From Sarea resinae (Eukaryota): a stretch of DNA of 28,838 bases. The DNA lies in the NCBI GenBank assembly GCA_026026165.1, contig JAPEUD010000090.1:62001-90838 (forward strand), in the 5' to 3' direction. The notes below the pieces were generated by a model, which was not told where the DNA came from, ran no database searches, and was given only the letters and a program-made list of their open reading frames with translations. Within the stretch, counting starts at the first letter, position 1, and each line of letters starts with the position of its first letter. A program made the translations under genes and the position numbers. Positions 1 through 28,384 of this stretch are shown here, piece by piece.

Positions 1-860
1 CCCGTGCTACCCCCCAAGAGCCCTCGGAGCTCACCGGGAGTTCTGCCGGATGTTTGGCATATGACAGAGTAGCGCATCAATTGGCCGACTCCGATCAGAG
101 GGAGGCTCACGGGTGCAGAGAGGAGATATTCCAAGTCAGGTCGACTCTCCGGATTCTGTAACCATCCCAGAAAATCGAGACCTTTCGGATACAGTTCATT
201 GACTCTCGAATCACACGAAAGTGACCGCAAGTCCGCCGAGAGTGGTACGAGGAGATCATCGAGGAACCCTGGATACGTATCATATGTCTCTTCCAATTCT
301 TCAAAGTAGCTCTCTGCGCCTTGGCCATTGAAGATGGCGAAAAGCTGGGCTTTGCCCTCTGCCGCATCTCGGAAGAGGGCCGTCTCATGCTGCGACAACG
401 GGCGATGAATCATTTGACACGATCTATAATAGGATTTGAGCACGGCTTGCTTCCTATCCTTGCTTCCTGGCAAAGTTGCGACCACAGTGTGAAGGTCGGC
501 GTCGCGAAGGAAAACCTCTTCAAGCTCGCAGAGAAGGCATTCGAGGATCTTGTTAAAAGATAGTTGGCGATCTTCATCCTCCTCGATTTCGGCTCTTGAC
601 GTGACTTCATCCACAAACTTCGAAAACAACTCCAATTCCGACAGGGGTTCCTGCCCCGAAAGAGACCCCGCGCGGTATAATCTGAGATCAGAAGTAAACG
701 AATTCTCAATTTCGGAAATGTGAGCAAAGATCGACTCGCGGACAAAGAAGGAAAAGTGTGTTTCGCCATGTTGTAAAGTCAATAATCGGTCGGACGATGG
801 ACGCGGTACAGAGATTCGAGTCTGCCAGGATGAGCCTGGAGAGGAGCTTCCTGTGCGCAT
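1..860 (-). CDS. Fatty acid synthase beta subunit (Fas1/FasB-type), 5' part only; the gene continues beyond the left edge of the window
   Basis: Manual translation from the ATG at 860 (AAA ATG context) gives 286 stop-free codons to the window edge: MRTGSSSPG...RLLTLQHGETHFSFFV...ELEEVFLRDADLHTVV...ALFRDAAEGKAQLFAIFNGQGAESYFEELEETY...GLDFLGWLQNPESRPDLEYLLSAPVSLPLIGVGQLMRY...PGELRGLLGGSTG. This matches the fungal FAS beta N-terminus and acetyltransferase domain (IFGGQG, YFEEL, PVSxPLIG, and GxTG immediately before the catalytic HSQG). It is missing from the ORF track because it has no stop codon inside the window. Confidence 0.93.
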   Translation of the reverse strand, partial: MRTGSSSPGSSWQTRISVPRPSSDRLLTLQHGETHFSFFVRESIFAHISEIENSFTSDLRLYRAGSLSGQEPLSELELFSKFVDEVTSRAEIEEDEDRQLSFNKILECLLCELEEVFLRDADLHTVVATLPGSKDRKQAVLKSYYRSCQMIHRPLSQHETALFRDAAEGKAQLFAIFNGQGAESYFEELEETYDTYPGFLDDLLVPLSADLRSLSCDSRVNELYPKGLDFLGWLQNPESRPDLEYLLSAPVSLPLIGVGQLMRYSVICQTSGRTPGELRGLLGGST

Positions 861-1498
861 TTTGGTAAAAGCCTTCAAGAAAATGCTTGAGATACACAGT
901 TCGAGTCAAATGAAATCAAGAATTGCAAGAAGGCCATCACTCAGATCGATATGGCTGGCCCGTCGCATGGAGGTAATGTCATTGATACGGTATTGATTGA
1001 TGCAGTACCGCTATGTTAGTAAAGTTGAGAGACCAATATCAAACAAGCTTCAGTATGCGAGCCAAACAATGTCTAGGCCGTACAAAACACAAAAGGAAAG
1101 TTGCGCTGACCAAAGACACAGCCGTGTCTAATTTGGTCTTGCAGAGCCACACATGTGGCCGATGTAAGCCAATGGCCAAGGGCCCCAAAAAGCATTTCGG
1201 CTGACGCGAATTAGGTACAGTAATCGTCGGATCGCCTAGGCCGCATAGACCGCTATGAAGTCAAGAACATCAACAATCCTCAAGACCGCATGTTGGCGTA
1301 GTGGTGCAGATCTTACGGATCGCACATCCAAATGGCTTTCATCGACCATTGCGGCGAGTTATCTCAGCACTAGGTACAGGACACTGAGCATACAACTGTA
1401 GGAGATGATCATCTGTCATCTCTTGTCCATCAGCTATCGATCGTTGCCCGCAGGTGCTAGGATGAACTTACCATGAAAAGTCGAAGACGACTGCTGGG

Positions 1499-1546
1499 GA
1501 AGCCAACGCCGAAGCCAACGCCGAAGCCAACGCCGAAGCCAACGCC
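1499..1546 (+). repeat. 12-bp tandem repeat (GAAGCCAACGCC)x4
   Basis: Four exact copies starting at 1499, 1511, 1523 and 1535, in the intergenic region upstream of FAS beta. Confidence 0.9.
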
Positions 1547-1760
1547 AAATTCGCCAGCAGCGGTGGGAGCATCGAACAGCTGCCTATGCGTTAGCTGCCA
1601 ACAAGCTCTCATGTCTAGATGAAGGTTAGTCTCGGAGAAGATGATCCCTCGATTGAGGAGCCCATCATCGCACGTAGACTTTGCGCGTAACATCATCGAT
1701 GTCCTCCTCCCGTATGATCAATTGCCGTTTCCGAAGGAAGAGAGGTGCCATGATAGGCGT

Positions 1761-1792
1761 TGATGATGATGATGGTGATGATGATGATGATG
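1761..1792 (+). repeat. (TGA/GAT)n microsatellite
   Basis: tgatgatgatgatggtgatgatgatgatgatg is directly visible. Confidence 0.85.
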
Positions 1793-2555
1793 TTGGTAAG
1801 AGGGTAAGAAGGTAAGAGGCCGTAAGCATCATACATGTAAGGACCAACCTGTTCCCGCAAAGTAGTTCGTTTGTACCTCATAAGCGAGACAACAGACCAT
1901 AACTACCTACCTTGGGTACCTATGTATGTAAGGTAATGGAATTTCATCATCACATTCGGTTCAACATTATTCCGATGGTCAATGCGATAGCACAGTGGAG
2001 GGGCTTGATGATTGATACACCGCGACCGATCAAGTCCTGAGCTGTTAGAAATCAAAATGCCAGCTATAGATTATCTTTGGGATATTTATAGGATATTTAT
2101 GTTATAAATCCTTATGATAATTCGATATTAGAGTCTCGCGACTGGCCATTCTAGGTTGGAAATAAATTGTGCTCAAAAATAATTTCAAATCCGATTCTCA
2201 AATCCGATAGGACTGACCTGCCCCCAGAAATATGTCAAAGTGGCGGGTGCCGTATCGAATCTTGAATGAATCGGATGTATAGAAAGACACTCCTTGATAT
2301 TGGGGCAGATGTAACATCAATCGAACAGCTAAGTATAACATTTCTCTGACATAGGGTAGAATCATTGCGCTTGATCTTCTTGTATGACAAGAAACGGCAG
2401 CCCGAATGCCGTGCTCATTGATTATTAGCACGATTTAAAATGACAATGCAATGCTATTCACGCAATTTGACAAAGACTCCGCAATCCAGGACTCCACCGA
2501 TTGCAATGCAAATTCCGATCATTCCCAATGGCCCATTTTCGGGATCAAGTTCCCA

Positions 2556-5500
2556 TCAGTTGGCAGCTGATGCTGGGCCTGAAGTATCTCTATTGTGATT
2601 TTGAATCCGAGAAGTCGGATTGAGTAGTACTTCAAGCTCCATCTCGCTGGGAAAAGGGGGATGGGTCTTCGCTTGAAACAAACTGTTGGTGATGAGCCCA
2701 TGGTGAAAATATTCATATGCACGCTTTTGCCGTTTCTCAACCTTCGTAGAGTACTCTTCATAGACCTCCTGACCCACAGTCGCAAAAAGATAACGTGGAT
2801 GCACGCAGATAGCTTGCGCACCTTTCTGTCCAAATCCAAAGGAGGTCAGAGAGACAGCTTTGATACCGGTTGTCTGAATACTACGGTTCGGAAACAGGAT
2901 GAAATCGTACTTCCGGAGGTCGCTGTCGATGTTGTCTCCGTTCCTATTCCCTGGCACTAGGCCCGTAGTAAGGCTTTGAAGGCACCCATTCAACATCCAA
3001 GCGCCAGCAGCTCCCTTTGGATGGCCTGTCAGATACTTTTGAAATACTCCTAATATAGTGTTGCCCTTTGCACGTCCAAGATGAGAAAGCTGACGCTGCA
3101 TGACATCGCATTCATTCTTCTCGTTTAGCCTTGTCGAGGTCCCGTGGAAGGATGCTACGTCGAGGTCGTCAATCGTCAAGCCCCAAGTCGCTAAAGCACC
3201 TCTGATTGGCGAAATTCGGGGATCATTCTTCCAGAAGGAGTTTCCGAGAGCATCCTGAGCTTCACGCTCTTGGCGACGGGCTTGGTTCTCGATCTGGAGG
3301 ATGGATTCCCGCCGATAGTCAGATAAATCGGCCTTGTGGTCCTCGGATTGCAGTCGTGCGAGATCATCCATAATATGTTCTAATGCTGCCTCCTTCTCTT
3401 CTCGAATCTGAGCTCTCCGAAACTCGAGGCGTTTTTTGCGATTTTGTATGTTCAGCATTGGCGAGGGGAACGGCTTCGAGGGTGACTCGCGCGACTGAGA
3501 TAAGATTCCCTTTCCTGGAGCCGGAACGGAGCGGCCAACCTTATCACTAGCAGTGCTGGTGAGGGCGACAACGCCATAGATTGGTAAGCCCATATCTAGT
3601 GCAAGCCGAGCCGAAGTCAGGACCTGCAGCCCGCAGCCATGAGATTCCATGAAGCCACTCCTTGTCGAAGTAGCAGGTCGGGACATCTCTTTCGGTGTGC
3701 GGCCACGGGCAAATTCATCGACGCTGTTGCTTGTTGCATTCATGTTGGCAAATTCATAGGACGGGTCCTCTCCGAAATCATCATAACCTCCGACGAGACA
3801 GAATTTCGCTTTCCCAGTGACGATTGTATCATGGCCGAGGTCGAGTGATTCGATCGAGGTTGCGCATGCTCCAACCGGGGTTCTTATTGGACCACTGGAG
3901 GAAAGCAGTAGCATGTTGACCCAGGCACTCACGACATTAATAAACGTCTCTTGCAGGACATCTTTTTGGACATCTCTTTCAAGGAAGCGATCTCTGTGCA
4001 TCTTCCTAAGGGATGATATACCTCCCAGGCCCGAGCCAATGCAATTACCCACCTCTGAGACATGTATGTACTGGTAAAGCTCATAGGGATCCGTGATGCC
4101 GGCCGAAAGGAGCGCTTCTACCGTGGTAACCAGCACGTAAAGGCATACCGGATCCACCTGGGAAATAATGTCTTCGGGAATTCCATAAGTTCGAGCGTTC
4201 CATCCTGTCGGGATCTGGCCGGCGACAAGGCGATTGAATTTCATGGCTTTCGGAATCATCAGTCTGGCTCCTTTCTTGAGGCGGGCCATGTATTGACCCT
4301 CGTCATCCTTGGATAGATAGAGTTTATCACCGTGTTCAAGTCTCATCTGGTTCGCCGTCTGCTCGGGAACTTGAATAGGATCCAGATCTTGTTGAATGAT
4401 GATCTCGTGCAAGAACTGTTTCCGCCGAGGATCGTACCCTTCGAAAAGATTCGGTTCAATCAAACGTATTCCTGAATGATCGAGAATATGCTTTTCATAT
4501 TTCTGTTTGATGTCTTTGTCGGATATTGGTTCCTTGGTAGTCGCATCAATCCATCCGGCATGCTGAGTTCCATTGAGTAACCCGACATGATGTGTAATCA
4601 GTCCCATTACCCAAGCCAATTCAATGCATCCCTCCAGAGAGAATTCTCCGAATGCTTCCATTTCCCATCGGGTTCGGGAACTACCATATGGCCCAACCTC
4701 TGCAAATCCAGTAATGACAACAACGCGCTCGAGGTCCACCATGTCTTTCATCGTCTCCGCCAATGGTGCTATCTCTGCTTGATAGTTTGGCAGCGGCGGA
4801 AAGTCGAACTTGAAATCGGCACGAAGAGGGAGCTCTTCGGAAAGACTTGATTCACTAGATGCGTTGTTTGCGGTGAAACATTTCTTCTCCGTAGATTGCT
4901 CTTGCAAGAGGCTACGTCGGAGTTCGCTCGTATCTTGTATGTGCTTTCGAATATCGCCTACTACCTGCTTTAGACCAGGAATCTTGTCCATGGCCCCGTT
5001 CAAATCGGCGTAGACGGGTTCGTGCTGGCTTAGGAGTGCGAGGGTTGGGCTCATAAGACAGATTATACCAAAAGCCATTTCTTGCTGGGAGAATGTTCTG
5101 ACTCCTAGCCTTTCCATACCTTCGGATACCACGTCATTGCTAGTCATGAGGCCTGTTCCTCGAGTCCAGCCAATCACAACACCACATATAGAGAGATATT
5201 CTCCCCAATTTTCGGAATACCAGCGGTTGAAAAGCGTCTCAAGTCCTGCTTTGGACTCGGAATAAAGCCCATCACCACCAAAATCACCATGATTAGGCGA
5301 TAATGGAAGTACTATTTGCGTTGGGCGGGTACGATAGCGTCGCCTCTGTTTTTGCGCCTTGACTGCTCCAAGAAGACGGAGCGTGTTAGTCAACATAATG
5401 CGATGAGCCAATTCGGACCTGGAATCCAGATCATCGATCTCATGACCATTTTCGGAAATTGCAGCAAACGGAAGGATATGATCCAGATCCCATCCGAGTC

Positions 5501-7616
5501 CTTTAGTATCGTAGATGTATTCGGCCAGAGAGTCAATATCTTGAGAGCTCCCTTGATTGAATGGGACAACGGCAAGGCTCGATCCCGGAGCACCATGTTC
5601 AGAATAGATAGATTGGTAGTGGTTGACAACTTCGCTTGAGTAGTGACTGGTCGTCACGAGAACTTTGGCACCTCCAGCGAGGATTCCGTGGAGCACCTCG
5701 GCTCCAATAGATCGAGATCCAGCGCCGGTGATCAAGACAGTCTTACCTTTGAACGATGTTCCGCTCTTTTGAACCTGATCCATCGTTCTCCGAAGAACCT
5801 CTGTCAAAGATCGACTGTATTGCCATCCACGAGAACCTCTTCGCTTCAGATGGAGGAGAGGCTCGGCTGAAAGAGTGCTCGAGTCCGGTTTGCGCGATGG
5901 CAACGAATCCTGGATGTCCTCAGCAAGGGAACCAAGATCTGGATTGTTTCTCCGTGGTATCTCCGCATACGAGATATTTCCTTTGACATCGATGGACGTA
6001 CAAGGTGCGATCATCCGATATGAAGCTCGGAAGAGGGGGTCAGCTTGAGTCGAGGCTTTGCAAATCTCCGCGAGTCCTTGGAGAGCCTTCGATGAACGAT
6101 GTTGTGGCCCAAGCTTTATGATCATGTAGTTGAGAACATCTAGCACTCTAGAATCGGCGCGATTGATTATCCGTCCACGCGCAAGTGAGGCACCCCAGAG
6201 CCATAACGTTGATTCGCGATCTCCGTTTTCTGGACAGCGCAAGACATACTTTTGGAGAAACAATACGAGATCTTGTAGAACCCAGTTCCAACATGAGTCG
6301 TATGTCCTGACTTTCATGGCGTCAAAATGTGGCCTGATACCTGTGGCATATGCCTCGCCATGTTCTATATTCCACTGATCAAGATCGTTTTCAAGTCGTG
6401 AGACCATTTCTTCGTGAACCTTCCGTAAGGACCTCTCACCGGCATGAAGATCGACTTGAAGGTGTGATGCGTAGGCCTCAAAGAGTTTTTCCGAAAGTGC
6501 CCTCTGATCTTTGGTGAAGCTTTTGATAACCTCGGGATCCATGACAACGCCGGCCGACGCAGCTCCACCTGCAGCAGTCACAGGAATACTGACACGCACA
6601 CCTGCTCGGACGGCATAGCTCTCAACGACACCATCAAGGAAAGCCTTAGCATCGATTTCTGCTCCTAGGCGCACAGAAGGCTGCATGGTGACGGCTAGTA
6701 GAAGGATACCATCCTGACGTCCTGGACCAAAGCCCCATCGCATGCTTAGGTGGTTCCGGATCGATATGAGATTGAAACCGCCGGGCATCTTGGATGATTG
6801 CATCCGATCTATCAATGTAGATGAGACTTTACCCATCCGGCCGTCGAATGAAGCACTGAGGCTGTGACACAATTCATCGAAACTTGCCTCTTCCGCCTTT
6901 TCCGGCACCGAACCAAACTCAGTGCTCAAGTCCCCGATGATCTCATTTTCGAGCGTTGAACGACCTATCCAGCATGAAGATTAGCGCTCATATACGCATA
7001 CTTGGAAGTGGTCGGGTTTTGACTAACCACCGGCGAGGCTTTTGATTGTTTTCTCTGGCAAAACGGCAGAGACGGAAATTTTGAGCTTATGAGCGATGAT
7101 GGTGACGGCGATCTCTCCGGCCGAGATAGCACAATCGGGCACTTGAACTGCAGGTCCATGGGGTCTAGCCTCGGGTGACAACTGCTCGGGCGGCGAACTT
7201 GAGACTCCCGCATCATTGTCCGTTTGTCCGATGGCGGTGAGCACTGATGTTTCGGGTGCGCCAGTAATTTCTTCGGCAGCATCCTCTAAATCGTAGTATA
7301 TCTCATTTGTATTCTTCTTCAAGGAGAGAAGCTCCCTCCGCAACGAGTGTGCCGCATCGTAGGTTTTATATTTGGTCGATAGTGTTCTTCGTAGCATAGT
7401 TGTCAAAGTATCCGCTGGTCCGACCTCGATGATCCTCTCGCAGCGCTTCTCGCCCAACAGAATATCTTGCGTCTTGATCCATTGAACTGGAGAGGCGAAC
7501 TGATAACTAGGGCTGGATGTCAGTCAAACTCTAGTCTCGCCGAAGAGCACTCACGCCATGAGCTCCACGAGCAAAGCATGGGCCAGCTCTTGCCTGACTT
7601 CCCGCCGTACCCTCAT
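2556..7616 (-). CDS. Fatty acid synthase alpha subunit (Fas2/FasA-type; ACP-KR-KS, no PPT domain), ~1649 aa, 3 exons
   Basis: Exons 7616-7555, 7506-7028 and 6964-2556 total 4950 nt in frame, with GT..AG introns of 48 and 63 nt. Motifs: N-terminus [35 protein letters not shown]; ACP motif LAGGRSTLENEIIGDL; KR motifs VLITGAGSRSIG and YSESK; KS catalytic motifs PVGACATS, SFHGTST, LTGHPKGAA and SFGFGQKG. The protein ends at LLNPTSRI...AAN* with no PPT domain. Confidence 0.96.
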
Positions 7617-9540
7617 CTTTGCCTTTTGTCGATTCCCAGACCCGGATGAAAAAAAAGACGCAGCGTTCGGAAACGGGATGGTTTTAACGAAGGTAAGAAA
7701 GCTTTAACGAGTATTGCTTCGTCATTGAGAGCTATGCTACCTTGGCTCTCGCGGTCGGCACGCCTAAGATTCAAGCAAGTTCAGATAGTTCAGATCCTCG
7801 TTCAAGAATGTCAGTAGATCGTATGTTAGCTTTGAAGATGGAAGACCAGCAAGCGCAAGCAAGCCATTCTTCGAGAAAGCTGATTGCTACGTGCAGTTCG
7901 ATCAACGCAAAGGCTCCAGCCGTGGATACGGGATCCAGGACCAACATGCCACTGAAGGTACGCACAGAAGCCCTAGGAGAAGGCGGAAAGCTCCACTGTG
8001 GCTGAAGCTAGATCTAGATCCGCTGCTCCAAGGCTACATGACGGTGAGCCTACGAGCAGCGCAAGAGTTCCACGCTTGCTGCTGAGCTAAGTCGAGCTAA
8101 CATGAATGGTAAGTATCGATGTTATCTTACCAACCACGGTCATTATTCCAAGCATGTCTCAATAGAGGATGAAGCCTGGCGTATGTCATGATCATGGTGG
8201 GATTCCATCAGCATCGTACTGATGCTGACAAGATCCCAAGGCATGACCCAGACGGGTTCCCTGATGATGGATCGGTGGGATTGGATGAAGGCTACAGGTC
8301 GGCTTGAGGGCCATCATTGTCATTGTCGTGCCTGCCGATGGCGAATCCAAGCCGAATATCATGTATGCCCGAGAACGAGGATGGCAACCAGGTGGGGAAT
8401 CTCCTTGCTATTCGCCGGTCCCCATTCGCCATTCCAGTTCATCTTGTCGTCTTCAGTAGCGGAAGTAGCGGGATGAAGACACGACATACATCACAGTCAC
8501 AATTGTCACTGATCGAATCGGGAGAGGTGTGAGCAGAGCATGGAAGTGAGAGGTAGGATGAAATGGATGGCTGGATCCATCCATCGCCGGTTGTGGTTCC
8601 TGTATGGAAGGCACGTGAGGCGGGGGATAAGACAGACCTTACCGATCTTCGGTATCGGGAACGATGACGGTTGGATCTCCTAGGTACCTAGTACCTATCC
8701 TAAGGTAAGGCACCCTACCTAAGTACCTAGGTACCTAGACGGGCACCTTGCTAACCTTTGAAGGTCTTCCCGTAGGACGATCGTCCTTACCCCGAACGCA
8801 CCCTCCCTACTGCGTACATGCACGTCAGACACAGGGATTCAGACAGACATCAGACGCCGAGGGTAGATCATTCTTCATTCTTCATTCTTCATAACGTGCA
8901 ACGCGAGGCTCAAATAGCTGCTTACCAAGAGCCTCACCCTCAAGGCACACACCAGGTCACTAGCTAGTTCAGCGCTGCATATCGAATAGCTACTATACCT
9001 ACTATCATCCACGTAGCAACTGGATTGATGTGGTCCGTCTTACGGTCCGGCTTGGTGCCTGCAGCTCCTGCAGCTCCACGAGGATCAATGTCATCGGAAC
9101 ACCAGAGAGATCACCGACGATAGGACCATGGCGCATGGCCGCATGGCTAACCTTGCAGAGAGGGGCCAAGAAACCCAGGAGTTCAGATTACCAGGTGGTT
9201 GGACCATCGATCATGGCCCCGGGATCGCTGTTGCAATTCTATGTTGCAACTGGTCAGCTTTGTGGGACGATTACTTTCCAGGCTGAGAAGAATATCAACA
9301 GATGTGGAGGGTAGATGCGTCAGATCATCCCGCGCACGTTCCCGTCATACCTCTGTAAACGTTGTATTGACGCGCTTCTGCACTTACCTGTCTGGATGAG
9401 CTGTATATGCTGTTCTATCCGGCACGGAGCGCACCGCGAAGTCGAGCAAGCAACGGTTGATTAGTATATCATTTCAGATCTATCTCTCCCGCTTCTATAC
9501 AACCAGAAACTGTTTTGCGTTGTTTGGAAATCGGAAAAAG
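7617..9540. promoter_or_regulatory. Divergent (bidirectional) promoter region between FAS alpha and the P450
   Basis: Head-to-head start codons at 7616 (-) and 9541 (+). There is no credible CDS in between. The region contains repeated CTTACC/GGTAAG hexamers and short palindromes. Confidence 0.6.
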
Positions 9541-11457
9541 ATGGCCGTTAACGATATATTATTTGTGCTCGGCCGAGCAGCTTCGCTGTTTTTGATTGTC
9601 TTTGGCGTCACGGTAAGTCTGATGAGCCCTTGAATTGCCTGACTATTCAATCGCATCTGCCTCATCATCAAAATTTCTAGCTAATATCAAAATCTAGATC
9701 TTGGTAGTCTGCACTTATAGACTCAATCTTCACCCCCTCGCAAAATTTCCGGGTCCGCGGCTGGCCAAATTGACAAATCTGTACTCTGCGTACCATGCTT
9801 GGAAGGGGGATCTACATCTTGACGTATGGAGATGCCACGAGAAATACGGTAGGGACTGTGCTAGACCTTGAACGGCGGAGCTTTGACAGGATCCTGATCT
9901 CTGACTGCATCTACAGGTGATTATGTGAGATATGCCCCAAATGGCCTCTTGGTAAACAACGTCGCGGGCTTACGTGGTAAGAGCAACTTAATCACCAATA
10001 CATTTTTCCTTCTCTACAGCGGACTGTATGCTAATCTGGCAGCTGCACATGATAGATGTTTATGGTCATGGAAGAAATTTCAAAAAGTCCAAAAAGTATT
10101 CTGCAATGATGCATAGGGCCCCCAACACACTTACCACAATCGACAAAAAGGCACATGGTCGAAAACGCAGAGTTATAAGCCAGGGGTTCTCTGATTCCGC
10201 AATGCGAAGCTACGAAGACATTGTACTTTCCCATGTTCGGAAATTTTGCGCCCAGCTCTACCGGGTCAATGGCGAGAAGAGGATTGCCAACCCTGGATGG
10301 TCTGTCGCTATAGATATGGCAAAGTGGTGTAAGTGTCCCATCTGAGAATGAGGTGGCCTTGGAAGAAGCTCACAAGCTCGTCATAGGTGACTTCTTGACC
10401 TTTGATATCATGTCGGACGTTGTCTTTGGGGTTGCATATAACACATTGGAGAATAATCGCTATCGATTTGTACCAGAGGCCATCGAAGCCTCTAATGTCC
10501 GAGTGGGCGTCATCGCCCAGGCTCCTGAGATGAAATTATGGAGGCTTGACAAGCGGCTGTTTCCTCAAGCGATTAAAGCTCGGAACAGATTCATTTCCTT
10601 TGTCGACGAAATGCTCCGAGACGGAATCAAGGCTACCAGCACCAAGAAGGGAAGAATCATGTCTCTTCTCATGGATGCCAAAGACCCTGAGACGGACACT
10701 ATTATCAGGAAGTCGGAGCTCGGTGCGGAGACTGCAACTCTCATTGTCGCTGGTACGAATATGGCTACAGTTCATACTCCGGAGGCTGACTCTTCTAGGA
10801 ACTGATACTACGTCAACTGCAATTGCTAGTATGTTCTTCTATCTAACGCACAACCCCAAGGCATATACCAGACTTGCTCAGGAAATTCGAAGCACTTTCG
10901 GTTCTAACGAGGACATTCATTTGGGGCAACGGCTCAACTCTTGTACCTACCTACGGGCATGCATTGATGAAAGTATGCGCATGTCACCTTCTGTAGGCGG
11001 TGCGCTGTGGCGGGAAGCAGATGCTGGTGGAGCCATTGTGGACGGGCAAGTTATTGCAGCTGGTTGCGACGTCGGAACGGGCATCTATAGTATTCACCAC
11101 AATCCCGAGTATTACCCCTGCCCCTTTGACTTTGTTCCGGAGCGCTGGTTGAGTGAGGAAGCTTCGAGTATTCATGGTGAGGTTGATCTTGCACACGCAG
11201 CCCTGAACCCCTTCTCCTTTGGTCCTCGAGGGTGTATTGGCAAAGGTCTGGCTTATATGGAGATGGTGCTCACCTGGGCTCATGTTCTCTGGTCTTTTGA
11301 GTTCAAAGCGGCGGATGGACCGGAGGGACAAATTGGGGAAGGCCAGCCTGGTGCCGAACACGGTAGACATAGGACTGGGGAGTACCAGCTGGAAGATCGC
11401 CTAACGAGCGCCAAACATGGACCCTACATCCAGTTTTACCCTCGCGCAGTGCAGTAA
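9541..11457 (+). CDS. Cytochrome P450 monooxygenase, ~526 aa, 6 exons
   Basis: Exons 9541-9612, 9698-9848, 9917-9976, 10056-10328, 10387-10752 and 10799-11457 total 1581 nt in frame. Motifs: N-terminal membrane anchor; [28 protein letters not shown]-helix AGTDTT; ExxR (DESMR); PERW; heme-binding [10 protein letters not shown]. Confidence 0.96.
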
Positions 11458-12623
11458 TCGCCTGTGATCGAAGTCTTTGAGTTGGAGAGTGAGACGATTT
11501 GGTTGAATATCAATACTACTTTCGGCATATTGCGATCTACAATTGAGGTGATGGGCGTATGTCCTCGAGGGTCGTTGTAGCAACTCAGGGCTTGGAGTGC
11601 CTTTGCGATATTGTCTTTGTATCAATACCTTCTTGCGGCAGCGTGCACACTCATTACAATTCGCTACAAGCAAAGGCGTGCGTTGGAGCTTTATCTGGTT
11701 GGATAGTAGAGTAGAAGGCGGCCAAAGAGACACCAGAACGAGCATATTCAGTCATCATGTTCCTTTTCACTGCCTATGGATAATAGATGGGCAGGCTTAG
11801 ACTTTCCGCAATAAGATTTCCCCGATTACAATTGAGGCTGTTCTTGAAAGAATCCGCTTGGGTATTACTAACGAAGCCCCACGGCTGTTCCGCACACAGT
11901 CTGTGGCAATCGCCGAGACATGCCTCAGCCTGGCCGAACAGCTTTCCACCCTCCCCCCCCCCTCCCCCCCGTTACCTCCAGCCATTCCCAACCTGGTTCC
12001 CCGGATTTCAGGCTTACTGTGCCTAGCGGGGAGGTGTGCAGGCTGGGTATTTTGTCTCGGGCCACCCTTGACTGCCCTGCACACCCGTGTCACATCTGAC
12101 AGTCCAGAATATCAGCAACAACAGAGGCGGTGATCACCTCAAGTTGGCGTTCAATGACGCCCAATTGGTAAGGTGTTTCCCCTTCTACTTGTCCCCGCGA
12201 ATTTCGCGTTCATGCCCAGGACCATGGGTCACACCCAGGGTGAACCATACTACCATGCTTGCTGTCGTGCTACCATGCTGCCTCGCGCGGCGACACGGAA
12301 CTTACTGTTGACCGGGTTGCCAACAGGAATAGTAACAGCGTCGTAATATTATCATTTCGAGACGGCAGCACTGATGATGAACTTTTTTTCATCCGTTGTT
12401 GGTGCAGGCGACTAAACCAATCTTTGGCTACGCCTCAAGGCAGCGTCTGACATCTGTTGCTTAGCTGACGATGATGATGCCATATTTGGTAGCTCATGAA
12501 TTCCTGGGAATAGTACGACTTCACTTATGGTTGCGCGAATGGAATAATAAACCTTTCGTTCTGTCAGGACCGACAAGTCACCTCTTCTTCTGCGTTTTTG
12601 CTGACACTCCAGTCAATCTCGAC

Positions 12624-14099
12624 ATGGAAAAGAAGCGTACGCAAGCACTTCGTATGCCTGCATGAACACCATACTGCCCATAGAGCTTCACTGCCCTGAT
12701 CTATAGGATTGCGATTGATACTGTCGTCATCGCAGAGGAAAATGCTATCCTCAGACGCAACCAGCCGCCGCAGGATCCAGAACCGGATTGCCCAGCAGAA
12801 CTATCGTGAGCAACTTGAGTTTTCATTTGGTCCCCTCAATCTATCTGTTACGTGAGCGTGATCGTCGAGTATGCGCTTACATACTGGCAGGCAAAAGGAT
12901 CAAACAGCAACGTGGCGAAGACAATGGAGAAGCAAGCAACGCGTCTTCGAGCTCGTCAATTGCTTCCGCTCCCGCTATGAAACCTTCCTCTCAATCGAAA
13001 GGAACTGGGCAGTCTAAGACGGAGAAGACAAAATTGCGAGGAGGGCCAAGTACCACCTCAAAAAAACGACAGCCCACGCGGACTGCATCGCCGACCCATA
13101 TTGTGTCACCGCCTTATGTTGAAGGTGATCCTGTTTGTACTCATCACCACTATCTCAGAGAGCCTACAATACTTCAGAGTAATGCCGCATGGGCTCAATC
13201 ATATCCTACACCGGAACAAAAACCTGGCCCGCTCTCTGTGAATGGTATTGGGCATCCACAACAACAGCAGCTTGCATCCCCAATACCATTCAATCGCTCT
13301 CATTTCCCATTGGAAGGTCACACATTCGGGGACGATAGCTTCGCGAATTTGCCACAAACGTTCTTCGCAGAGACCGGTGGCCTACTTACACCGACCTTGG
13401 ACTATACAGCGTTGATGGGAGAGGACATGCAAATGGCAGAGATTCGACAAGACGCAAGATTGCCGGTGAGCGTCACTGTTTAGCACGAGTTTCCAATTTC
13501 TCTCACTGAATTTCTTGAATATATAGTCATCAGTCGCCGCAGAGATGCCCAAATCAGCCATTACCAGTAGCAGCAGTAACGAACGGCCAGAAGACGGCCG
13601 GACTGCTCTTCATAAGGCGGCCTTCTATGGACACAAGCTCGTTGTCAATGTGCTCCTAGAGAAGGGCGCTGATATTGATGCTAGAAGCTCTGATGAGTTG
13701 ACGGCACTTCACCTTGCAGCGCGAAAGGGAAACGAAAGTGTCGTGAGGCTTCTGGTAGAAAAAGGTGCTGATCTGGATGCCAGAGACATTACTGGGAGAT
13801 CGTCGTTACACCTTGCAGCCGATCAAGGCCATTACGCAATTGTACAATATCTTCTCGACAAGGGCGTAGACATTGACTTGGCGGACGTCTTTGGAAATAC
13901 GATGCTTCATCTAGCATCGGAACAGGGGAATGCAGCTGTTGCGCAAATGTTATTGGAAGAGGGTGCCGATGTCCACGCTAAAGACAATTCCGGAAGGACA
14001 GCACTTCATCGAGCGGCAGAGCGTGGACACGAGGGAATAGTGCGCCTGCTATTGGAGAGAGGGGCAGATATTAACGCAGATACAGGTGACGAACGATGA
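12624..14099 (+). CDS. bZIP-basic-region / ankyrin-repeat transcription factor (TOXE/APS2-like 'bANK' cluster regulator)
   Basis: The basic region SRRRIQNRIAQQNYR|KRIKQQ is split by intron 12806-12890, and no heptad leucine zipper follows it. After intron 13466-13526 come five ankyrin repeats (GRTALHKAA, ELTALHLAA, GRSSLHLAA, GNTMLHLAS, GRTALHRAA). The start is uncertain: ATG 12742 gives ~403 aa, while ATG 12624 with an extra intron 12652-12706 gives ~424 aa. Confidence 0.88.
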
Positions 14100-15807
14100 C
14101 ATTGGCCAATTCTCTGGATGCTGGTTGATCTTCTTCTTGGTGCATACATGTGCATACGGACTGTTTTATTTACTTCGGTGCTGTTTAATCTTCATGTCGT
14201 TCTCTCCGCGCGGAATGCCCGATCAAAATGTTGAAATACTCCTTGTAAGAGAGGTAGATCCGGCTCGAGCTTTGCCCGCTCGAATTCAAGCGCATGGATA
14301 AGACGTCAATGCTAAAGTGCAACAGCGTGTGAGGAAGTCCATTGAGTCAGCCAGCATACTTTGAGGATTAGAGATTTATTCAATTTGTTTCCCGCGGCTT
14401 CTCAGAGCCAACTAAAGGCTGCGGAGCAAGTCACTCTGTAGGCTTCAGTTCAAAGTACATACATTGGTATACTACAGTATGCGTCTCTCTCGGAGGTTGC
14501 GGCACCTTCGGGCAGCGGTCCTTGTGGCGTTCCAGCTCGTAAAACTAATTACATTTCGACTGCTTGACTATAAGCAGCCTTTGAAATTTCACGCTTTTCC
14601 CTTTCAGCTGAGCTGGATTCGGGCGGAAGGCGATTCTACCGTCCTACAGCCCAATATCCGAAGAAGCTCGCTATGTCTTTGCATAACATGGTTACAATCC
14701 TTACGGTCCTTGTAGTCCTTACGTCTCAATCCACTCCCCAGGGACTTCACCAGTCGCAGATGGTGTGAAGCCACAAGATCGCAACTGTCGAATGAGGGCT
14801 GGGATGATAGAGAGAGCATTCTGCTCAGTCAGATACTGGGATCCCAGCTGCCCGACTTTGTTGCCCTCGGTTTAGTGAAGCCGATTTCAAATCATTACTC
14901 AATACATTGACCTCTGTCAGGGACCCATCTCCCCTTGTTTTTAAAACAAGGCATTATTGCACCTCCCTCAAGTTACCGCCGGGGATCACAGACGCGAGCT
15001 TCTGAGTCGCTTGCCGATGCCCTCGTACCCTCGTGTTATGGTCGACTATGTTGAGCTCGTTTTCCAAGACTCTTGCCCTCATCAGAACAGTGCTGCAGCT
15101 CGCTGTGGCCATTCCGAGGTCATCCTCAGCTTTTCGCCAAACACCACGATCCTGACAGGGAACATCAGAGAGCCATGCAGCCGAGCACTTGCTCGCACAT
15201 GTTGATGCAAGTGTTCAGATTTTCACATTACGTAGGGCACCGGAGAGAATGCCATGGCAAGTTTGCAGGCCGGGCTGAGTCAACGATCGGAATAACTCTG
15301 CACGGGGTAGGAGCTGCCTCATTGGTACACATGGCGCTGTTCTTGGGCGAATTCAAGTTTGAGCACCTCAGCTTCCTTGCGCGAGGATCGCGATTCTCGA
15401 TTCTCATGACCCTGACGCCTTCACTCTGTAGATGTCGCAATGGTCGTGATGTCTCCGCGAGTGGAGAATCCCCGCTACTATGCAGCTTATTCTACGTGTA
15501 TTCGGTCATGGACCCCTCGCATCGTGCCAAGGGCGGAACGATCCCTAGCCGATCGCCAGGGATCTGAGACGGCGACGCCAACAGAGGGGCTGTCGGTCAC
15601 TAACCCTCTTCAGCGACTGATGAGCGGTCCGACCATCGTACAACCGGTACTAAGCCGCACATGGCGCGATCTCCTTTGACTCCTCCCCCATCTTGATCTT
15701 CGCCTCGTCTGACTCTAGCGACCCCGCTCCCGCCTGCTGGGACGTTTTAGAATCATGCCTTACAAAGTACGTACTGGTGCTGCACAACGAAGGTAAGGAG
15801 GCTTAGC

Positions 15808-15833
15808 AACAACAACAACAACAACAAAACAAC
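15808..15833 (+). repeat. (AAC)n microsatellite
   Basis: aacaacaacaacaacaacaaaacaac is directly visible. Confidence 0.8.
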
Positions 15834-17833
15834 GAATGGTAGACAGCTATGCTGGTGCATGCTGGTGAATGCGCCCTTCTCCGGCAGGGCAACTCTGCAG
15901 CTCAGCCTCATCTCCCCGCCATCGTTCTCTCAGATTTGTTAAAATGAGTGAGTCGTTGGGTATTATGGCTGGTTCACGTATTTCCCTTACGCACGGTCCT
16001 CACAGATCTCTCTAGTGACAAGAGTACCAACGATGCTACCTTGAGCCACCGCTAGAATTTGACTTTCTGCTCGTTCGTTGCTGCCTGTCATAGGCCCCGC
16101 TGATTCTGACCGTCCTATCGGTCCGATGTATTGTCCGGAGGCCAATGTGAATGTGCCAGCCGCTCTTTTCCTCAATTGGGAGCCCTCTATGGAAGGATCC
16201 GTACCTGCTCATCCGCTAGTAAGCCATTTTTCTCGAGTTACACCTAACATTCATTACCCCTCTTCTCGAAGGGATAGACGGATCCACCCGATCAGGCTCT
16301 TTAGACGTCACATGCACGATCACGTTTACGTGCAGCATAAGCAACTCCACAGAAATGCTTATTGGACCATCACCGCAGGCGAGCAAGGTAGGGACATCGT
16401 ACCTCCGTGGCGCGGAAGACGCTTAGGGAGCCGCCCCTTGGCGTGAGGGCCACCGCCCAGCGCCCTCGCCCGGTCGGACGCCTCGCCCGCTCCGTACCTG
16501 CGCGGAGAAAAAAGAACGAGTGAGTGGGTGGTGGGTGAGCGAATATGAATGCAGAGGCGGGCGTGCTTGGTTGATCACTCCTCTTTGGCTGAGTGGTTAG
16601 CGAGTCAGGTGTGCAGCAGATGACACGAGGACACGAGGACACGAGGAGCTGAAGCTGAAGCTTGGCCGAACGGCCGAGGGGCAGAGACACTCAGATTACA
16701 TGCACCTAAATCTTCTACGCAGCACGATGCCACGAGATTGGTGTTTGTAGTCTCATTCTTGCTTTCTTTGGAGACTTTCTTGGACAACAACTGCTACTTG
16801 GTTTGCACGTGTACTACCCTCTAGGCATCAGGATGCTCCCAGACAAGTGATGACCTCACTCTCCTCACCGATTACTTCCCTCCCCAACTCGTCTGTTGCA
16901 GTAATCTCGAACCTTTTACCTTGTTGTGGCCCATCGAGTCGAGTCTCACCTTGTCTGCTCTTCTCCCATCCATTCCCTGCCTCCACGTGCCAGATGTCGT
17001 CGCCCCTTACTTCGCGCTTTCTTCCTTCCGTTGTTCAATGAGTTACAGACCGACCAAGAGCCGAGATTATGTTTTACTTTTCTTACACAGACACCGCGCG
17101 CTGATTCTGAGATCCTTTCTGCTAGATGTTGGCTGTATGTGTTGGTATGTAGCGGACTCGACCTTTGTGTTTGCGCTCTTTTCTGTCTGTATGCAACGTA
17201 AGTAAGAGCGGCAAGGGAGCTGACGCCATTCCCATTCCTTGTTATCAGTCCTCTATGGCTGAATTGCCCCGCACCGCGTCGCACCGGCCTGGTGTAGGCT
17301 CATTGAGAGCGGGGCTATCGTGCGCGTCATGGGAAACAAGGCTGAGTAGAGACGCGGTTGAGTTGGACTTGCGTTCTTTTTCAGCGTCTGCCTGCGTTCC
17401 TTTGTCTATTCTGGCATATTTCGAGATTTTACTTTCGTAAAACATCAGAGTTACCCTTGTTCAGGAGACGAGCAAGGCTGAACGTTCATTCAGTTGGGAT
17501 TGAGGTCATTGTTAGTTGTCTGCTGTAGCCTGTTGTTTCTGTGGACGACTTTCTAGTGCGGGCTTTCAGAAGTAATAGGTTTTAAGGCTCAGGAAATTGC
17601 TGTTTCGAGGACTTCCAAGGTAATTCCTACTTTTAGAGTGCTAGATTTTGTTCGAAAGGTCCTCTGTTGAGCTGTTTGAAGATAATACTATGATATATGA
17701 AATAAAATCGACCTATAAAATGAACACACTAATATTTGTCCTTCGCGATGCCAGATTCACACTAGCTTCACATAATATCGTATAATCGTCCATCTGTAGT
17801 TGTAAAGAAAAGGAAGGGAGAAAAATCAAAAAA

Positions 17834-20800
17834 TCAAGCAAATATCTGGTTCGCCACGCTCCAGTACTCCAGAATCGACTGCCACGTCTCCTGATCCTCC
17901 CTGCTGCCGCTGCGTTCCGCCATGCCACCCACACTATTGCTATCCTCGGACCGCTGGGAGCCCGGACGCGAAATCCGCTTCCTTGACCCCGCCTTCTCTG
18001 ACTGCTCTGTTTGCGCCGTGCGCGATGAGAAGGCCCGAGAAAGGCGTTTTCGCGCGGTAGTCGAGCGCGATCGTGACGACCTGCGCGCCGAATCGGCACC
18101 AATGCAATCGGTTTCATCATCGGTGCCATCACCATCGCCATCATGATCATCGTCATCATGATCATCGTCTCTGTGGTACCGACGAGCCCCTCGCGTCGCC
18201 CGTCTCTTTGCGGCCCGCTTGACGCGCGCCTCTTCCTCGAGCCGCACCTTCTCGAGCGAAGAATCCCAGTCCTGCCCCCCACTGCTTGACGCATAGAGGG
18301 TTTTGAAGATGGAATTCTGGCGCGCCAGCAGATCGAGCGGATTTCCGATCTCGACGAGCGCGCCGTGCTCCATTACCAGCACGATGTCAAAGTCGAGGAT
18401 GGTGTCGAGCCGATGCGCGATCGCAATCACAGTGTGTGCAGCAAAGTCCTCGCGAATGATCCGCTGCATCAGCCCGTCCGTCAGCGCATCCACGTTGCTC
18501 GTGGCCTCGTCCAGCACCAGGATCTTGGATTGCCGCCGCAGCAGCGATTTCGCGAGACAAAGGAGCTGCCGCTGCCCGTGCGAGACCAGGTCTTCGCTGA
18601 TGGGCGCGTCTAGCCCGCCTTTTGAAACGAGCGTGGCCCAGAGCTGTACTCTTTCCAGCGCGCCAGTGATTGCTTCGTCCGGGTATAGCGAGTCCGGGTC
18701 GATATTCTCGCGCACACTGCCTTCGAAGAGGTAGGGCTCTTGCGGGAGCCCGATCAGCTTCTCGCGCACCTCTTGGCGCGGCACTGTCGAGATGTCGACG
18801 TCGTCGACGATGATACTGCCTGTTTCGAGCTCGACTAGCCGGAAGAGCGTTGATACGAGGGAGCTTTTGCCGCTGTTTTGGTAGATTAGTACATTGGAGA
18901 TGTTTTGCGGGTGGAATGATATTCACTGACCTGCCACTCCGACCACATATTCCCACTTTCTGTCCCGGTCCGATCTTGGCCGAGAACATCTTCAGCGCGA
19001 GCTCAGCGGTAGGTCTGTCGTAGCAGAGTATTAGCCATGAGACAAATGTAGCGTGTCGCTGGGATAGACTCACTTGTATCGCGCAGACACGTCTCGAAAC
19101 TCAATGGCGCCACTGGACGGCCATTCAGGAGGCGGTCTGTATGTCTCCGCGGGCAGATTTTCAGACGGAGTAGAGCTAAAGGTCTTAATTCTCGAGACAG
19201 CCCCCATGGACGTTTCAAGCAGCGTCCAATTAGTGATGAGAGCCTTGAGCGACTCATTAAAGGACACGACGTTGACAAGGGCCATGCCGATAAAGCCGGC
19301 TCCGATCTTACCCTGCGTGGCGACGGCGATTCCCACAAGCACAACCGCGAAACCGGCGACGCTTAGGTCGAGGACCAGATTGAGCCAGCGCTGGACGCAC
19401 CAGAGGAGATAGTACGGCCTTTGCGATGCGTTCAGAAGTTCGTCGTTTCGGGCCATGTATTCTTTCTCCCATCCGTAGGAGCGAATAGTAGCGAGACCAC
19501 TGAGCGTCTCCAGGAAGTGAGAAAACAGCGGTGATTTAGCTTCAATGTCCATGAGTCGTAGCTGGCGAGACGTCCGCAGGTAGAATTTCTGGACGAAGAA
19601 GAACACGATGCCAGACGCCGGAATGATTGCAGCGATGTACCTTGCCGATACAGATATGATGATCAGCTGTGACAGGGAGATCAACAAGGCTGTTTGCAAG
19701 GGTCAGTAGAAATCTCGAGAACCAAACAATAGAGAAGCTCACCAAGAGACGTGTTGAGCACGGCTAACGGCAATTCCATGTCAACGAGCTCCAAGTCCTG
19801 GCTGAATCTGGAATTCGGTCAGCTCGGTCTCTAAGGAGCAGCGAGTCCAGCCTACCTATTTGTCGTCTTTCCCAGATCTGTTTCCGAAAAGAAGGACATG
19901 GGAGCACTAGCCAAGCAATTGTGCTCAGTAAAGGTTTCGTGCAAGCCAATTGTAGGGGCCTTACCTCAGTACAGTTCTGAGCAGCGTCGCGTGAAACCTG
20001 CGAGCCGTTCGAGAGACCATACTAGTCATCAAGAACCTAACGACAGTTAAACGACCACTATTAGAATGAGAGGGAGTGACTTGCCAGCATGAGAGCATCA
20101 AGAAGATGACGGCCAATACGCCAAGAAACCAGTATATCCCGAGGTATTTGGTGACGTGTTGATTTGGGACCCTATCGTTGGCTTTAGACCACCACATGAC
20201 CCAAACAGCTATACAGTTCGCAATTAGAAAGAACCAAATATTCCGTGGATTACATACTTGGAAACGAGAACAGAAAGGTGAACACGGCCATCAGAGCATA
20301 GAACACCGTCCAGTTCATGTAACCAATAGTCTGAATATAGTACTTGTACACAGTAAAGTCTCCGACTCGTCTGTCTCCAGTCGCAGCCACTTCTCGGTCG
20401 ACTGGTATTGCAGGTCCTTTTTCCGTTTGATCTTCTCTTTGCACGCGCGAGCGTTCGGCGATCTGGTTTCGGATGGCCAGACTCTGCACATATCCATCTG
20501 CGGAACCGAGCTTCGCAAAGTTGCCTTGCTCGACGATCCGACCATCGGATCCCAAAGCAATGATATGGTCTGCAAAGGACAACCGATGCACTGCTATCAT
20601 TCAGCGTCTCGTACAAAGACTTGGAAGGATCTGAAATCGTACCTGCATTTGTAGCCAAGATGACCGTTGTCTCGCTTTTCCGGAAAAGACCCTCTTCTCC
20701 GAAGAGTTCCGCAAATATGTGATCTTCGGTAATTGGATCCAACCCGCTGAGCACATCATCTAGGAGGACGAGATCTTGTCTCGAATACAGCGCTCGCGCA

Positions 20801-23397
20801 AGTGACTGAGCACTGTATCAGCTCTGGTTCGAATCGTTGCCGATGACATTTCTACTCACTATGCGCTGCTTCTGTCCTCCACTCAGCGTTGAGCCCTTGC
20901 TTCCGACCAAGGTTTCGTCTCCTTGTGGGAATTGGAGAAGATCAGGCTCGAGAGCGCAAGCATGAACGACGGCTCGATACCATTGCAAATCGTAGTAAGA
21001 CTCGCCGAGGATATTTTGCCGTACCGTATCATTTGTGAGCCAGGGAGTTTGGCCACAGTAAGCAGCTTCCGAGAAGTCGATCTCGATGCTGCCTCGAATG
21101 GAGGGTATCTCTCCCAGGAAAGCTCTCAAGAGGGTAGATTTGCCGCTGCCGACCGGGCCGATGATCATCGTCAGCCGATGGCGTTCGACAGTGAGACTGA
21201 GACCTCCCAGGATAGGGCGGTCCTTATTATCCCAGCTGATATCTGCATCATGAGTGCGAATGCAGACTTTTTCGGACGAGTTCAAGTCGTCCGAATCTAC
21301 AGAGACTCTCAACCAAGATCGATCGTGATTGACCGGCTCGGGGGGATCCGCTCTTTCGGGACTGAAACCACCAGGTGTAAACATGGTGAGTGTTCTATTG
21401 TCGTCTTTTCCGGCTGCCGCGAGGAACTTTCGGATTCGCTCAATACTACCAATAGCCGTCATCATACCCGTTGACGCCTCAACAACAGTTCCCACGGGCG
21501 TCGCTAGTAAAGTAAACAGCGTAAGTGATGTGAACGCCTTGACAGTTCCCAGAGAGTCTGTGCCATTCTTCACGGAAAGTGCAGAGTATATTGTGAACGC
21601 GATGACTGGCGAGATTGAAGTGCTCAGGTGGGCTGCTCGACGTTAGCAAAGAAGAGCTGGGATAAATGGGCTCTCATACATAAGCCGACGACTGCGATCA
21701 GCAACTCTCTGAACTTCTGAGATGCTTTGATCTCTCTCAACCTCAAGTTTTGTATGACGTTTTCAAGGCGTTCACTCAAGCCAGACATTTTGACACCCTT
21801 CATGCTCCCGAGCATTGTCGCGGTCATGCTGACACGCTTCTGTATTGCTTCGATCCATATCTTTTGTCGATTCCCTGCCAAGCCGGCTATGTAGACCGCG
21901 ATCGCAGTACAACCTGTCGCGTCCGACAAGTTAGGTCGGAACCATCCATCTCTAGAGTTGAACATACCAAATGATACTATAATGGGAGCAATGCTCGCAA
22001 TCTCGAGTTGTCTCCACAGCAGCCAAAGTGCAAGAGCGATTTCTATCACCGAGGCCCACGTATCATGCATATAGCGCAATCCCGTCCCGATACGCTCAAT
22101 ATCCGCGCTCATTAGAGTAATTGGTGCGGAATCCTCGAGCGCGCCAATGCTTAGATGCATCGTCTTTTGATATATCATGCTGACAAGGGCTCCTCTCAGC
22201 ATGGTAATGGTCCGGTACGCTTTGTGTTGCGCTTGGGCGGTTGTAATCTGCCAGAGTCAGTGAGACCCAATATTTGGAGTAGCGTACTAACAGCGATACC
22301 AATGTACACGATGGCGTATGCCGCGATTAATCCGTATCCTTTATTTTTCGAGTTTGAATCCACAGGGCTCCCGATGAGTCTCACAGTTGCGCCAGTCAGG
22401 AACGGCTGCGCGAACGTGAAGCCGATCTGACACATGCGTGGGAGAACTCCGGAGATGAGAATCCATTTGTATTCTTTGACGGCAAGTCCAAGAAGACTAT
22501 GGGATTTTTTCTTATTGGAAACTAGAGAATGATCAGCATGGACGGACGGAATATGAAAGAGGAGTGTACGTCGACTCCATCGTAATATCAGGCCCGTATC
22601 AACCGCGTTCGACGAAGAAAGTGCCTCATCCAGCGAGAACAGATCGTTGAGAGCGAGGTCTTTTCGAGAACCCTCGAGTAAGAGCGGATTCAACCACCAG
22701 AAGAGTATCCGGTTGTAGACCGAGCTCGTCACTTCGGAGGGGCTATCCGAGAACTCGACCCTCAATATTCTCCGCTTCTCTATGGATTCTAGAAATAGGA
22801 TCCATACTCGCAGCACGACTGTCACGGTAAACAGCGCCGCTATCGCCCCTTCGCCTTGTGTCTTCCATAACGTTCTCGTTCTTGGAATGTCCAATACAAT
22901 CGAGAAAAAAAGGTATGAGCCGATGATGGTTGACGGGCGAATCGAACGCGTATGTTCGAGTTCGGAGAGATATAAGAGGCTGACTACGGCCAAGAAGCTT
23001 AGAACTGCGGAAGCCGTGGACGTCCGTGTCTTCGGGGTCGACGGTCTCCCCAGCACTCCTATCAATGCTAGTTGAATGACAGCTAGTATGGCCGCACTCG
23101 TCTTTTCTCATCAGTCTACCTGGCACATTGGTTTAGGGCGGCAAAATTCACCAACTTCAGCCAATACAGCACCTCTCGATTGACCTTTGTTCTCTCCTTG
23201 AATAAGACAAAGCTTCTGAGCAGCGCGGCGATGAGAAACAACCCATTGGGCGCAATGGAGAGGAAGGTTTCTTCGAACAAGAGCGTGAAGTCGAAGCCTC
23301 CAAGACAGTACTTTTCTTGCGGCCCAAAGGAATCTTCTACAGCAATGGTGCAAGACGCCGAGCGAGGAAGCAGACGTGCTGAATCAAGGAGGTGCAT
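17834..23397 (-). CDS. ABC transporter, ABCC/MRP subfamily (TMD0-TMD1-NBD1-TMD2-NBD2), ~1613 aa, 15 exons
   Basis: Exons read by eye: 23397-23152, 23101-22570, 22521-22292, 22247-21968, 21913-21680, 21632-20860, 20805-20643, 20590-20258, 20208-20085, 20036-19965, 19906-19856, 19807-19743, 19689-19074, 19014-18931 and 18872-17834, totalling 4842 nt in frame. Motifs: N-terminal FGP...FDFTLLFEE; LEHTRSIRPS; FWWLNPL; NBD1 GPVGSGKS, LSGGQKQR, LVLLDD; FYLRTSRQLRLMDIEAKSPL; NBD2 GRSGSGKSS, SHGQRQL, ILVLDEATS, IAHRL. Confidence 0.94.
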
Positions 23398-28034: not shown

Positions 28035-28384
28035 ATCGCTGCTGAGCGACCGAGCGAGCGAGCGAGCGGGCGCGCCCCGGGTAACCCCCGGTGGTAGCCC
28101 CAGGTAACTCTCAGTGGCCATAGCTACTTTTTTCGAAATGGCAACCGAGCGACTAACTAACCAGTCGAGCGCGCCCCGGGTAACCCCTCGTGGCACCTCG
28201 AGGGAAGCAAGCCTTAGTGGCATCCTGACCGCATAGCTAGTCGCCATCCTATCTGATGCAGCTGTTCAACGATTGAACTTCTGGACAGTCCAGCAGAAAA
28301 ACCTCTCTCTAGGCTGCGGGCGCTTTCTGAGTATAGCCCTGCTGCTGAATCGCGACCGACTGACTGACCGACCGATTGAGCGCG
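28035..28384. repeat. Degenerate subtelomeric repeat modules (tetramer microsatellite + GCGCGCCCCRGGTAACCCC)
   Basis: GCGCGCCCCRGGTAACCCC occurs at ~28070, ~28169 and ~28380. Each copy is preceded by a GAGC/ACTA/GACT-type tetramer run. Confidence 0.75.

Follow-up and report, generated by a model that had tools for sequence, protein, structure and literature searches.

The telomeric 28.8 kb of contig JAPEUD010000090.1 from Sarea resinae (hereafter the window, that is, the whole stretch of DNA analysed) raises the question of what a resinicolous fungus would make with a second fatty acid synthase (FAS) encoded close to the end of a chromosome. The contig, 90,838 bp long, belongs to a metagenome-assembled genome, and some 62 kb of it lie further to the left. 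In the preliminary description of this DNA a partial FAS beta gene, a FAS alpha gene, a cytochrome P450 gene, a gene for a regulator of the bANK type and a gene for an ABCC transporter had been placed in the window, and Pfam searches, together with a reading of exons and motifs, located all five at the same places and with intact reading frames. The set had also been said to end about 5 kb from a telomere; the start codon of the ABCC gene (position 23397, which is the end coordinate of that description) indeed lies 5.3 kb from a (TTAGGG)n array. This array, of 20.8 copies, is terminal and is preceded by a satellite with a 23-base unit; at its right edge the window reaches the genuine end of a chromosome from a filamentous fungus. 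The locus would be the telomere-side part of a secondary metabolite cluster built around a specialised FAS, and a nonribosomal peptide synthetase (NRPS) product containing a fatty amino acid is the reading which we rank first, yet hold only tentatively. Dedicated fungal FAS enzymes provide unusual building blocks for toxins and drug leads, such as the cyclic tetrapeptides that inhibit histone deacetylases, and the locus offers an orphan, intact case of one in a fungal lineage that has hardly been studied.

The fatty acid synthase pair and its relatives

Over its large exon, FAS alpha is 100% identical to a public record entitled 'MAG: hypothetical protein M1819_007262 [Sarea resinae]' (1649 aa). 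The deduced protein gave 1913 bits against FAS alpha of Chaetomium, and its acyl carrier, helical, ketoreductase and ketosynthase regions (PF18325, PF18314, a weak adh_short match and PF00109/PF02801, respectively) follow one another in the order found in fungal type I alpha subunits (FAS2-type). The C-terminal phosphopantetheinyl transferase (PPT) domain of such subunits, PF01648, is absent from this protein according to the Pfam search: the polypeptide ends at the close of the ketosynthase region, and a second FAS alpha of the same organism (P0045, M1819_001668, 1871 aa), which carries PF01648 at its C-terminus, runs about 155 residues beyond the aligned end. No remnant of the lost domain was detected downstream of the gene, where open reading frames (ORFs) of at least 45 aa between positions 900 and 2600 gave no ACPS match. 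The FAS beta part aligns with the N-terminus (residues 5–283) of Chaetomium FAS beta (E = 1.9e-57). The two genes follow each other head to tail, both on the minus strand, instead of being divergent, with a 1.7-kb spacer between the stop of FAS alpha and the start of FAS beta. A perfect 12-base repeat, GAAGCCAACGCC, is present in this spacer in four copies (1499–1546).

Phylogenetic placement of FAS alpha was carried out with FastTree on 78 rows (71 tabulated representatives, the window FAS alpha and six named housekeeping proteins) and with IQ-TREE on a 40-row subset. In the former tree P0045 was found among the named housekeeping FAS2 proteins, and the window FAS alpha, which is 61% identical to P0045 over the ketoreductase and ketosynthase regions, belonged to a separate clade of 24 rows (support 98), where it was the sister (98) of an uncharacterised FAS alpha of Calycina marina (P0125). 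The latter tree gave a clade of 25 rows (SH-aLRT 99), the same pair (92) branching first within it. The pair of genes had been suspected to be dedicated to the cluster, and this assumption was borne out: since the PPT-bearing P0045 of the same organism groups with the housekeeping enzymes, the window pair is not the only FAS of the genome, and sequence comparison identifies it as a dedicated paralogue distinct from the housekeeping FAS.

Apart from the window FAS alpha, the 24-row clade has 23 members, of which only three carry PF01648 (E ≤ 1e-5). These three share one small subclade, to which the window FAS alpha does not belong. Outside the clade, several PPT-less rows stem from partial records and were not counted; some clade members come from short contigs, but eleven of those without PPT correspond to named NCBI records, on contigs of at least 16 kb. 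Because 20 of the 23 lack PF01648, loss of the PPT domain is the rule in the specialised clade and not a defect of this particular gene. The locus adds a data point to a pattern by which specialised FAS alpha subunits are marked out by having lost the built-in PPT domain; a narrow literature search brought up no paper that describes it.

When the last 1200 residues of FAS alpha were compared with 1.84 billion representative proteins, the closest non-self matches were 55–56% identical, and none exceeded 56%. Since FAS alpha has no closer relative, the product of the locus is probably not a known compound. High identity to a characterised cluster had been named in the preliminary description as grounds against novelty, but none proved closely related: the best non-self FAS alpha sequences are 51–56% identical to that of the window. 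Among the cluster members of 30 representatives, for which organism names were obtained, there was no characterised enzyme, and a literature search returned no mention of FAVG1_08646. One PPT-less FAS alpha model of the specialised clade, P0159 of Colletotrichum higginsianum (2343 aa), to which a record titled 'Fatty acid synthase apf5' is near-identical, contains a full N-terminal P450 domain. Be it a real fusion or two merged neighbouring genes, here too a P450 stands directly beside a specialised FAS alpha.

A scan of metagenomes with FAS alpha gave eight loci at 40–58% identity, none of which qualifies as an orthologous cluster. PF01648 is kept in all five whose FAS alpha ORFs were scanned (L001, L002, L005, L006 and L007; not L003, L004 and L008), and the downstream genes of these five have housekeeping functions (Sec7 family, Stm1, Pex24, MCM5). 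The upstream neighbours in L001, L002, L005 and L006 are housekeeping-type genes or ORFs with no Pfam match.

As regards chain length, the ketosynthase of the window FAS alpha reads G-L...F, and that of the housekeeping copy G-I...F, at positions G1250, M1251 and F1279, which we take to be the chain-length gatekeepers of the yeast ketosynthase pocket. The pocket seems to have no obvious short-chain signature, and little weight is given to this comparison.

Regulator and candidate products

The public record of the regulator, M1819_007264, belongs to the same contig as that of FAS alpha. Its N-terminus consists of a bZIP-like basic region, RRRIQNRIAQQNYRKRIKQQR, with N-x7-R spacing and no leucine zipper, followed by a low-complexity middle rich in serine. 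The Pfam matches of the basic region, bZIP_Maf (E = 0.02) and bZIP_2 (E = 0.039), were both below the Pfam cutoff. The C-terminus is made up of five ankyrin repeats (Ank, E = 2e-49), the known bANK members having three to four in this position. The architecture, a bZIP-like basic region with no zipper joined to ankyrin repeats, resembles that of the class to which the protein had been assigned in the preliminary description.

In the most probable of the pathways considered, the bANK protein would activate the neighbouring genes, and the FAS would make a dedicated acyl chain, probably of medium length. Lacking a built-in PPT, FAS alpha would depend on the general (Sfp-type) phosphopantetheinyl transferase of the cell to prime its carrier domain in trans. 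The P450 would then oxidise the chain made by the FAS; most likely a transaminase would turn the oxidised acid into a 2-amino fatty acid, which an NRPS would incorporate into a peptide, with the genes of both enzymes placed further left on the contig, and the ABCC pump would export the product. Gene content, paralogy and domain loss are what has been shown, the chemistry and the NRPS being inferred, and this pathway is ranked highest chiefly because the characterised bANK regulators (ToxE, Aps2, Apf2 and FGM4) all control NRPS clusters. Those under ToxE (HC-toxin), Aps2 (apicidin) and Apf2 (apicidin F) each include a gene for a FAS subunit, which supplies a 2-amino fatty acid (PMC4109984); the bANK-like FGM4 regulates the NRPS cluster of fusaoctaxin (PMC6389888). 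Even so, this reading is given somewhat less than an even chance, since the window itself holds no sign of a peptide.

A number of observations weigh against a fatty-amino-acid peptide. No NRPS, aminotransferase or other enzyme gene was detected in the 28.8-kb window by Pfam, gap ORFs of at least 45 aa included. No copy of the ToxE box, ATCTCNCGNA, occurs in the window, and the Apf2 box, TGACGTGA, has one match, as against 1.03 expected, which lies inside the FAS beta coding sequence and not in any of the promoters. The middle exon of the regulator matched only itself when compared with 5.8 billion proteins. The HC-toxin and apicidin clusters export their products through pumps of the major facilitator superfamily (MFS), and not of the ABCC type, as already stated in the preliminary description and, for APF11, in PMC4109984. 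In addition, the window FAS alpha and its Calycina relative branch outside the rest of the specialised clade, the row with the near-identical 'apf5' record included, so that the window enzyme would be orthologous to no named one. Two further findings weaken the preliminary description itself. The regulator of the aspercryptin cluster is a Zn2Cys6 protein (PMC8395729), and the pairing of a bANK regulator with an ABC exporter, which had been put forward as a new combination, does not stand as such, for FGM4 and FGM5 already provide it in the fusaoctaxin cluster (PMC6389888).

Other uses of the acyl chain were considered as well. The pair could provide a non-reducing polyketide synthase (PKS), linked or unlinked, with an acyl starter of short or medium length, as HexA/HexB does for aflatoxin, the P450 then tailoring the polyketide; this is judged unlikely, albeit ahead of the other alternatives. 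FAS alpha/beta pairs do supply starters in clusters of the aflatoxin type and, in a fungus of the order Helotiales, in that of xylindein (PMC11877519); the nearest relative of the window FAS alpha also comes from a fungus of this order, and in lichen fungi a FAS pair beside a P450 has been proposed to serve an unlinked PKS (PMC8533459). However, XLNfas2 retains the PPT domain according to the Pfam table in PMC11877519 and the HexA homologue of Pseudevernia is 5619 bp long (PMC8533459), whereas the window FAS alpha is PPT-less and stands apart from the subclade with the only three PF01648 carriers of its clade. Moreover, HexA and HexB are divergently transcribed (PMC8533459), unlike the head-to-tail pair of the window, and PKS clusters are not known to have any characterised bANK regulator (PMC4109984, PMC6389888). 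Ranked next, and likewise unlikely, is the notion that the five genes are the whole pathway, in which a fatty acid from the FAS would be hydroxylated or oxidised by the P450 and secreted by the ABCC pump as a free lipid, with neither NRPS nor PKS. The PPT-less FAS, controlled by the bANK protein, might in that case furnish an oxidised medium-chain lipid useful on conifer resin as a surfactant, solubiliser or signal. On paper such a pathway is complete: contiguous genes already cover synthesis, tailoring, regulation and export, and the telomere side of the cluster holds no further enzyme gene. The cellobiose-lipid clusters of Ustilago likewise contain FAS, P450 and ABC pump genes, but together with glycosyl- and acyltransferases, which are absent from the window. 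Besides, FAS beta runs off the window, so that the five genes have no seen left boundary, and bANK regulators have so far been tied to NRPS clusters (PMC4109984, PMC6389888). If true, such a free-lipid pathway would take a bANK regulator beyond NRPS clusters for the first time and establish a new class of fungal clusters based on FAS alone.

More improbable again is a condensation of the FAS product with oxaloacetate by a citrate synthase encoded upstream, leading to an alkylcitrate or to a compound of the sporothriolide or oryzine type. Dedicated FAS subunit genes and a citrate synthase do occur together in the alkylcitric acid, sporothriolide and oryzine clusters (10.1101/714071, PMC8162735, PMC6162547, PMC11877519), but no citrate synthase, dehydratase or decarboxylase was found in the window by Pfam scans, and no bANK regulator is named for clusters of this kind in the abstracts of 10.1101/714071, PMC8162735 and PMC6162547. 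That the genes are chance neighbours, the FAS pair being a redundant or decaying copy from primary metabolism with no pathway attached, is considered by far the least probable. The identity of 61% which FAS alpha still shares with the housekeeping copy would suit it, as would the sequencing runs that hold the window DNA, among which no RNA run, but only the probable source run, is listed. Against it stand the intact reading frames and catalytic motifs of all five genes, the PPT loss common to a whole clade of specialised enzymes, and the adjacency of a regulator and an exporter, which is typical of clusters. The fatty-amino-acid peptide stays the leading candidate. Before the remainder of the contig is read, the locus has limited practical value.

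P450, exporter and chromosome end

The coordinates of the genes and of the other features of the window are given in Table 1.

Table 1. Features of the telomeric 28.8-kb window of Sarea resinae contig JAPEUD010000090.1 (window coordinates).
Feature	Position	Strand	Description
FAS beta, 5' part	1-860	-	ATG 860; ~286 codons, runs past left edge; FAS_N, E 1.3e-22
FAS alpha (P0003, M1819_007262)	2556-7616	-	3 exons, 7616-7554, 7505-7026 and 6962-2559; stop 2556; 1649 aa
Intergenic promoter region, FAS alpha/P450	7617-9541	.	1.9 kb, divergent
Cytochrome P450	9542-11457	+	ATG 9542, stop 11457; ~6 exons; divergent from FAS alpha; Pfam p450, E 6e-45 on last exon
bANK-type regulator (P0123, M1819_007264)	12742-14099	+	3 exons, 403 aa
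Long ABCC (MRP-type) transporter	17834-23397	-	ATG 23397, stop 17834; many short introns; TMD0-like N-terminus and two halves, each of a transmembrane and a nucleotide-binding domain
Telomere repeat (TTAGGG)x20.8	28714-28838	+	tandem-repeat reading, last 125 bases of window

The motifs of the P450 are intact, namely AGTDTTS in the I-helix, ESMR at the ExxR site and the heme-binding motif, and its introns follow the GT-AG rule. In the ABCC gene, all changes of frame and the one in-frame stop fall inside short GT-AG introns, and neither nucleotide-binding domain lacks its Walker A, signature or Walker B motif. Pfam recognised ABC_tran twice, ABC_membrane and, weakly, TMD0_ABC (E = 2.6e-4 and 0.014); the best matches of both nucleotide-binding pieces among solved structures (PDB) were all ABCC proteins. 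The searches of ESM Atlas returned generic ascomycete ankyrin and P450 clusters only. The frame of the transporter extends about 150 residues past the end of the solved ABCC proteins (17837–18290, minus strand). Asp, His, Ser and Arg abound in this low-complexity C-terminal tail, within which a 15-base tandem repeat occupies 18133–18169; the tail could be real, or else reflect an unrecognised intron or stop.

No coding signal was observed in the stretches 7617–9541 and 14100–17700. The former, which separates FAS alpha from the P450, contains no Pfam family at E ≤ 0.01 in ORFs of at least 45 aa, and a k-mer scan of four promoter regions revealed no convincing shared motif. The latter, a 3.6-kb gap from the regulator to the 3' end of the ABCC gene, is unusually long for a compact cluster; it has a slightly raised G+C content (0.54 at 15–17 kb) and yielded no Pfam match or protein-like ORF. 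Across the gaps as a whole, where all 207 ORFs of at least 45 aa were subjected to a Pfam scan, DUF7582 was the sole family above the cutoff, and no further enzyme gene was found. The DUF7582 ORF (24584–25258, plus strand, E = 1.5e-8) lies between the ABCC gene and the telomere.

Closer to the chromosome end, two adjacent minus-strand ORFs with overlapping frames (26994–27446 and 27361–27726) contain stretches of about 100 aa that are 61% identical (E = 2e-43). No Pfam family was assigned to either in the scan of the window ORFs, and the pair looks like a tandemly duplicated subtelomeric unit. The 23-base satellite, CCCCGGGTAACCCCCCGTGGCAT, occupies positions 28385–28697 directly inside the telomere repeat, in 13.6 copies with 98% match, and a degenerate relic of it (1.9 copies, 28074–28117) is located 270 bases inward of the main array.

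Comparison with known systems

A search of titles and abstracts found no literature on gene clusters of Sarea resinae. Clusters near telomeres that combine a dedicated FAS with a bANK regulator, P450 and exporter are known already, and a close parallel in gene content is offered by the apicidin (APS) and apicidin F (APF) clusters of Fusarium, with the bANK proteins Aps2 and Apf2, a dedicated FAS alpha and P450s (PMC4109984). At the far end of its chromosome, the APF cluster (PMC4109984) matches the window set in position, and the 4995 bp of the FAS alpha gene APF5 given in the same source fit a PPT-less protein, the coding sequence of the window FAS alpha being 4950 bp. For Apf7, a P450, it was proposed that it oxidises the fatty acid to a 2-oxo acid, which is then converted by a transaminase (PMC4109984). 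In contrast to the window, where both FAS subunits and an ABCC exporter are found and neither NRPS nor aminotransferase is, the Fusarium clusters hold FAS alpha alone, an MFS exporter (APF11), an NRPS and an aminotransferase (PMC4109984).

The TOX2 locus of Cochliobolus carbonum, responsible for HC-toxin, also unites a dedicated FAS subunit (TOXC, a FAS beta) with the founding bANK protein ToxE (PMC4109984); ToxE has four ankyrin repeats as against five in the window regulator, and the type of exporter differs. The fusaoctaxin cluster fg3_54 of Fusarium graminearum resembles the window in its bANK-like FGM4, its ABC transporter FGM5 and its P450 FGM1, but it has two NRPSs, no FAS genes and a product without a fatty amino acid (PMC6389888). 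2-Aminodecanoic and related acids are found in the peptides of the gramillin (NRPS8) and aspercryptin (atn) clusters (PMC10967133, PMC8262921), the latter of which has two transaminases (PMC8262921). The starter synthases of the HexA/HexB type, known from aflatoxin and xylindein, share with the window a dedicated alpha/beta pair in a secondary metabolite cluster; the window pair departs from them in its tandem arrangement on the minus strand and in the loss of PPT (compare PMC8533459 and PMC11877519).

The nearest relative of the window FAS alpha in both trees (98 and 92), KAG9244844.1 of Calycina marina, belongs to the same length class (1662 aa), is likewise PPT-less and is 51% identical to it over the full length. 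What is new in the Sarea locus, when set beside these systems, is its lineage, a resinicolous fungus of uncertain class placement, together with an orphan FAS alpha and the tandem order of the FAS genes.

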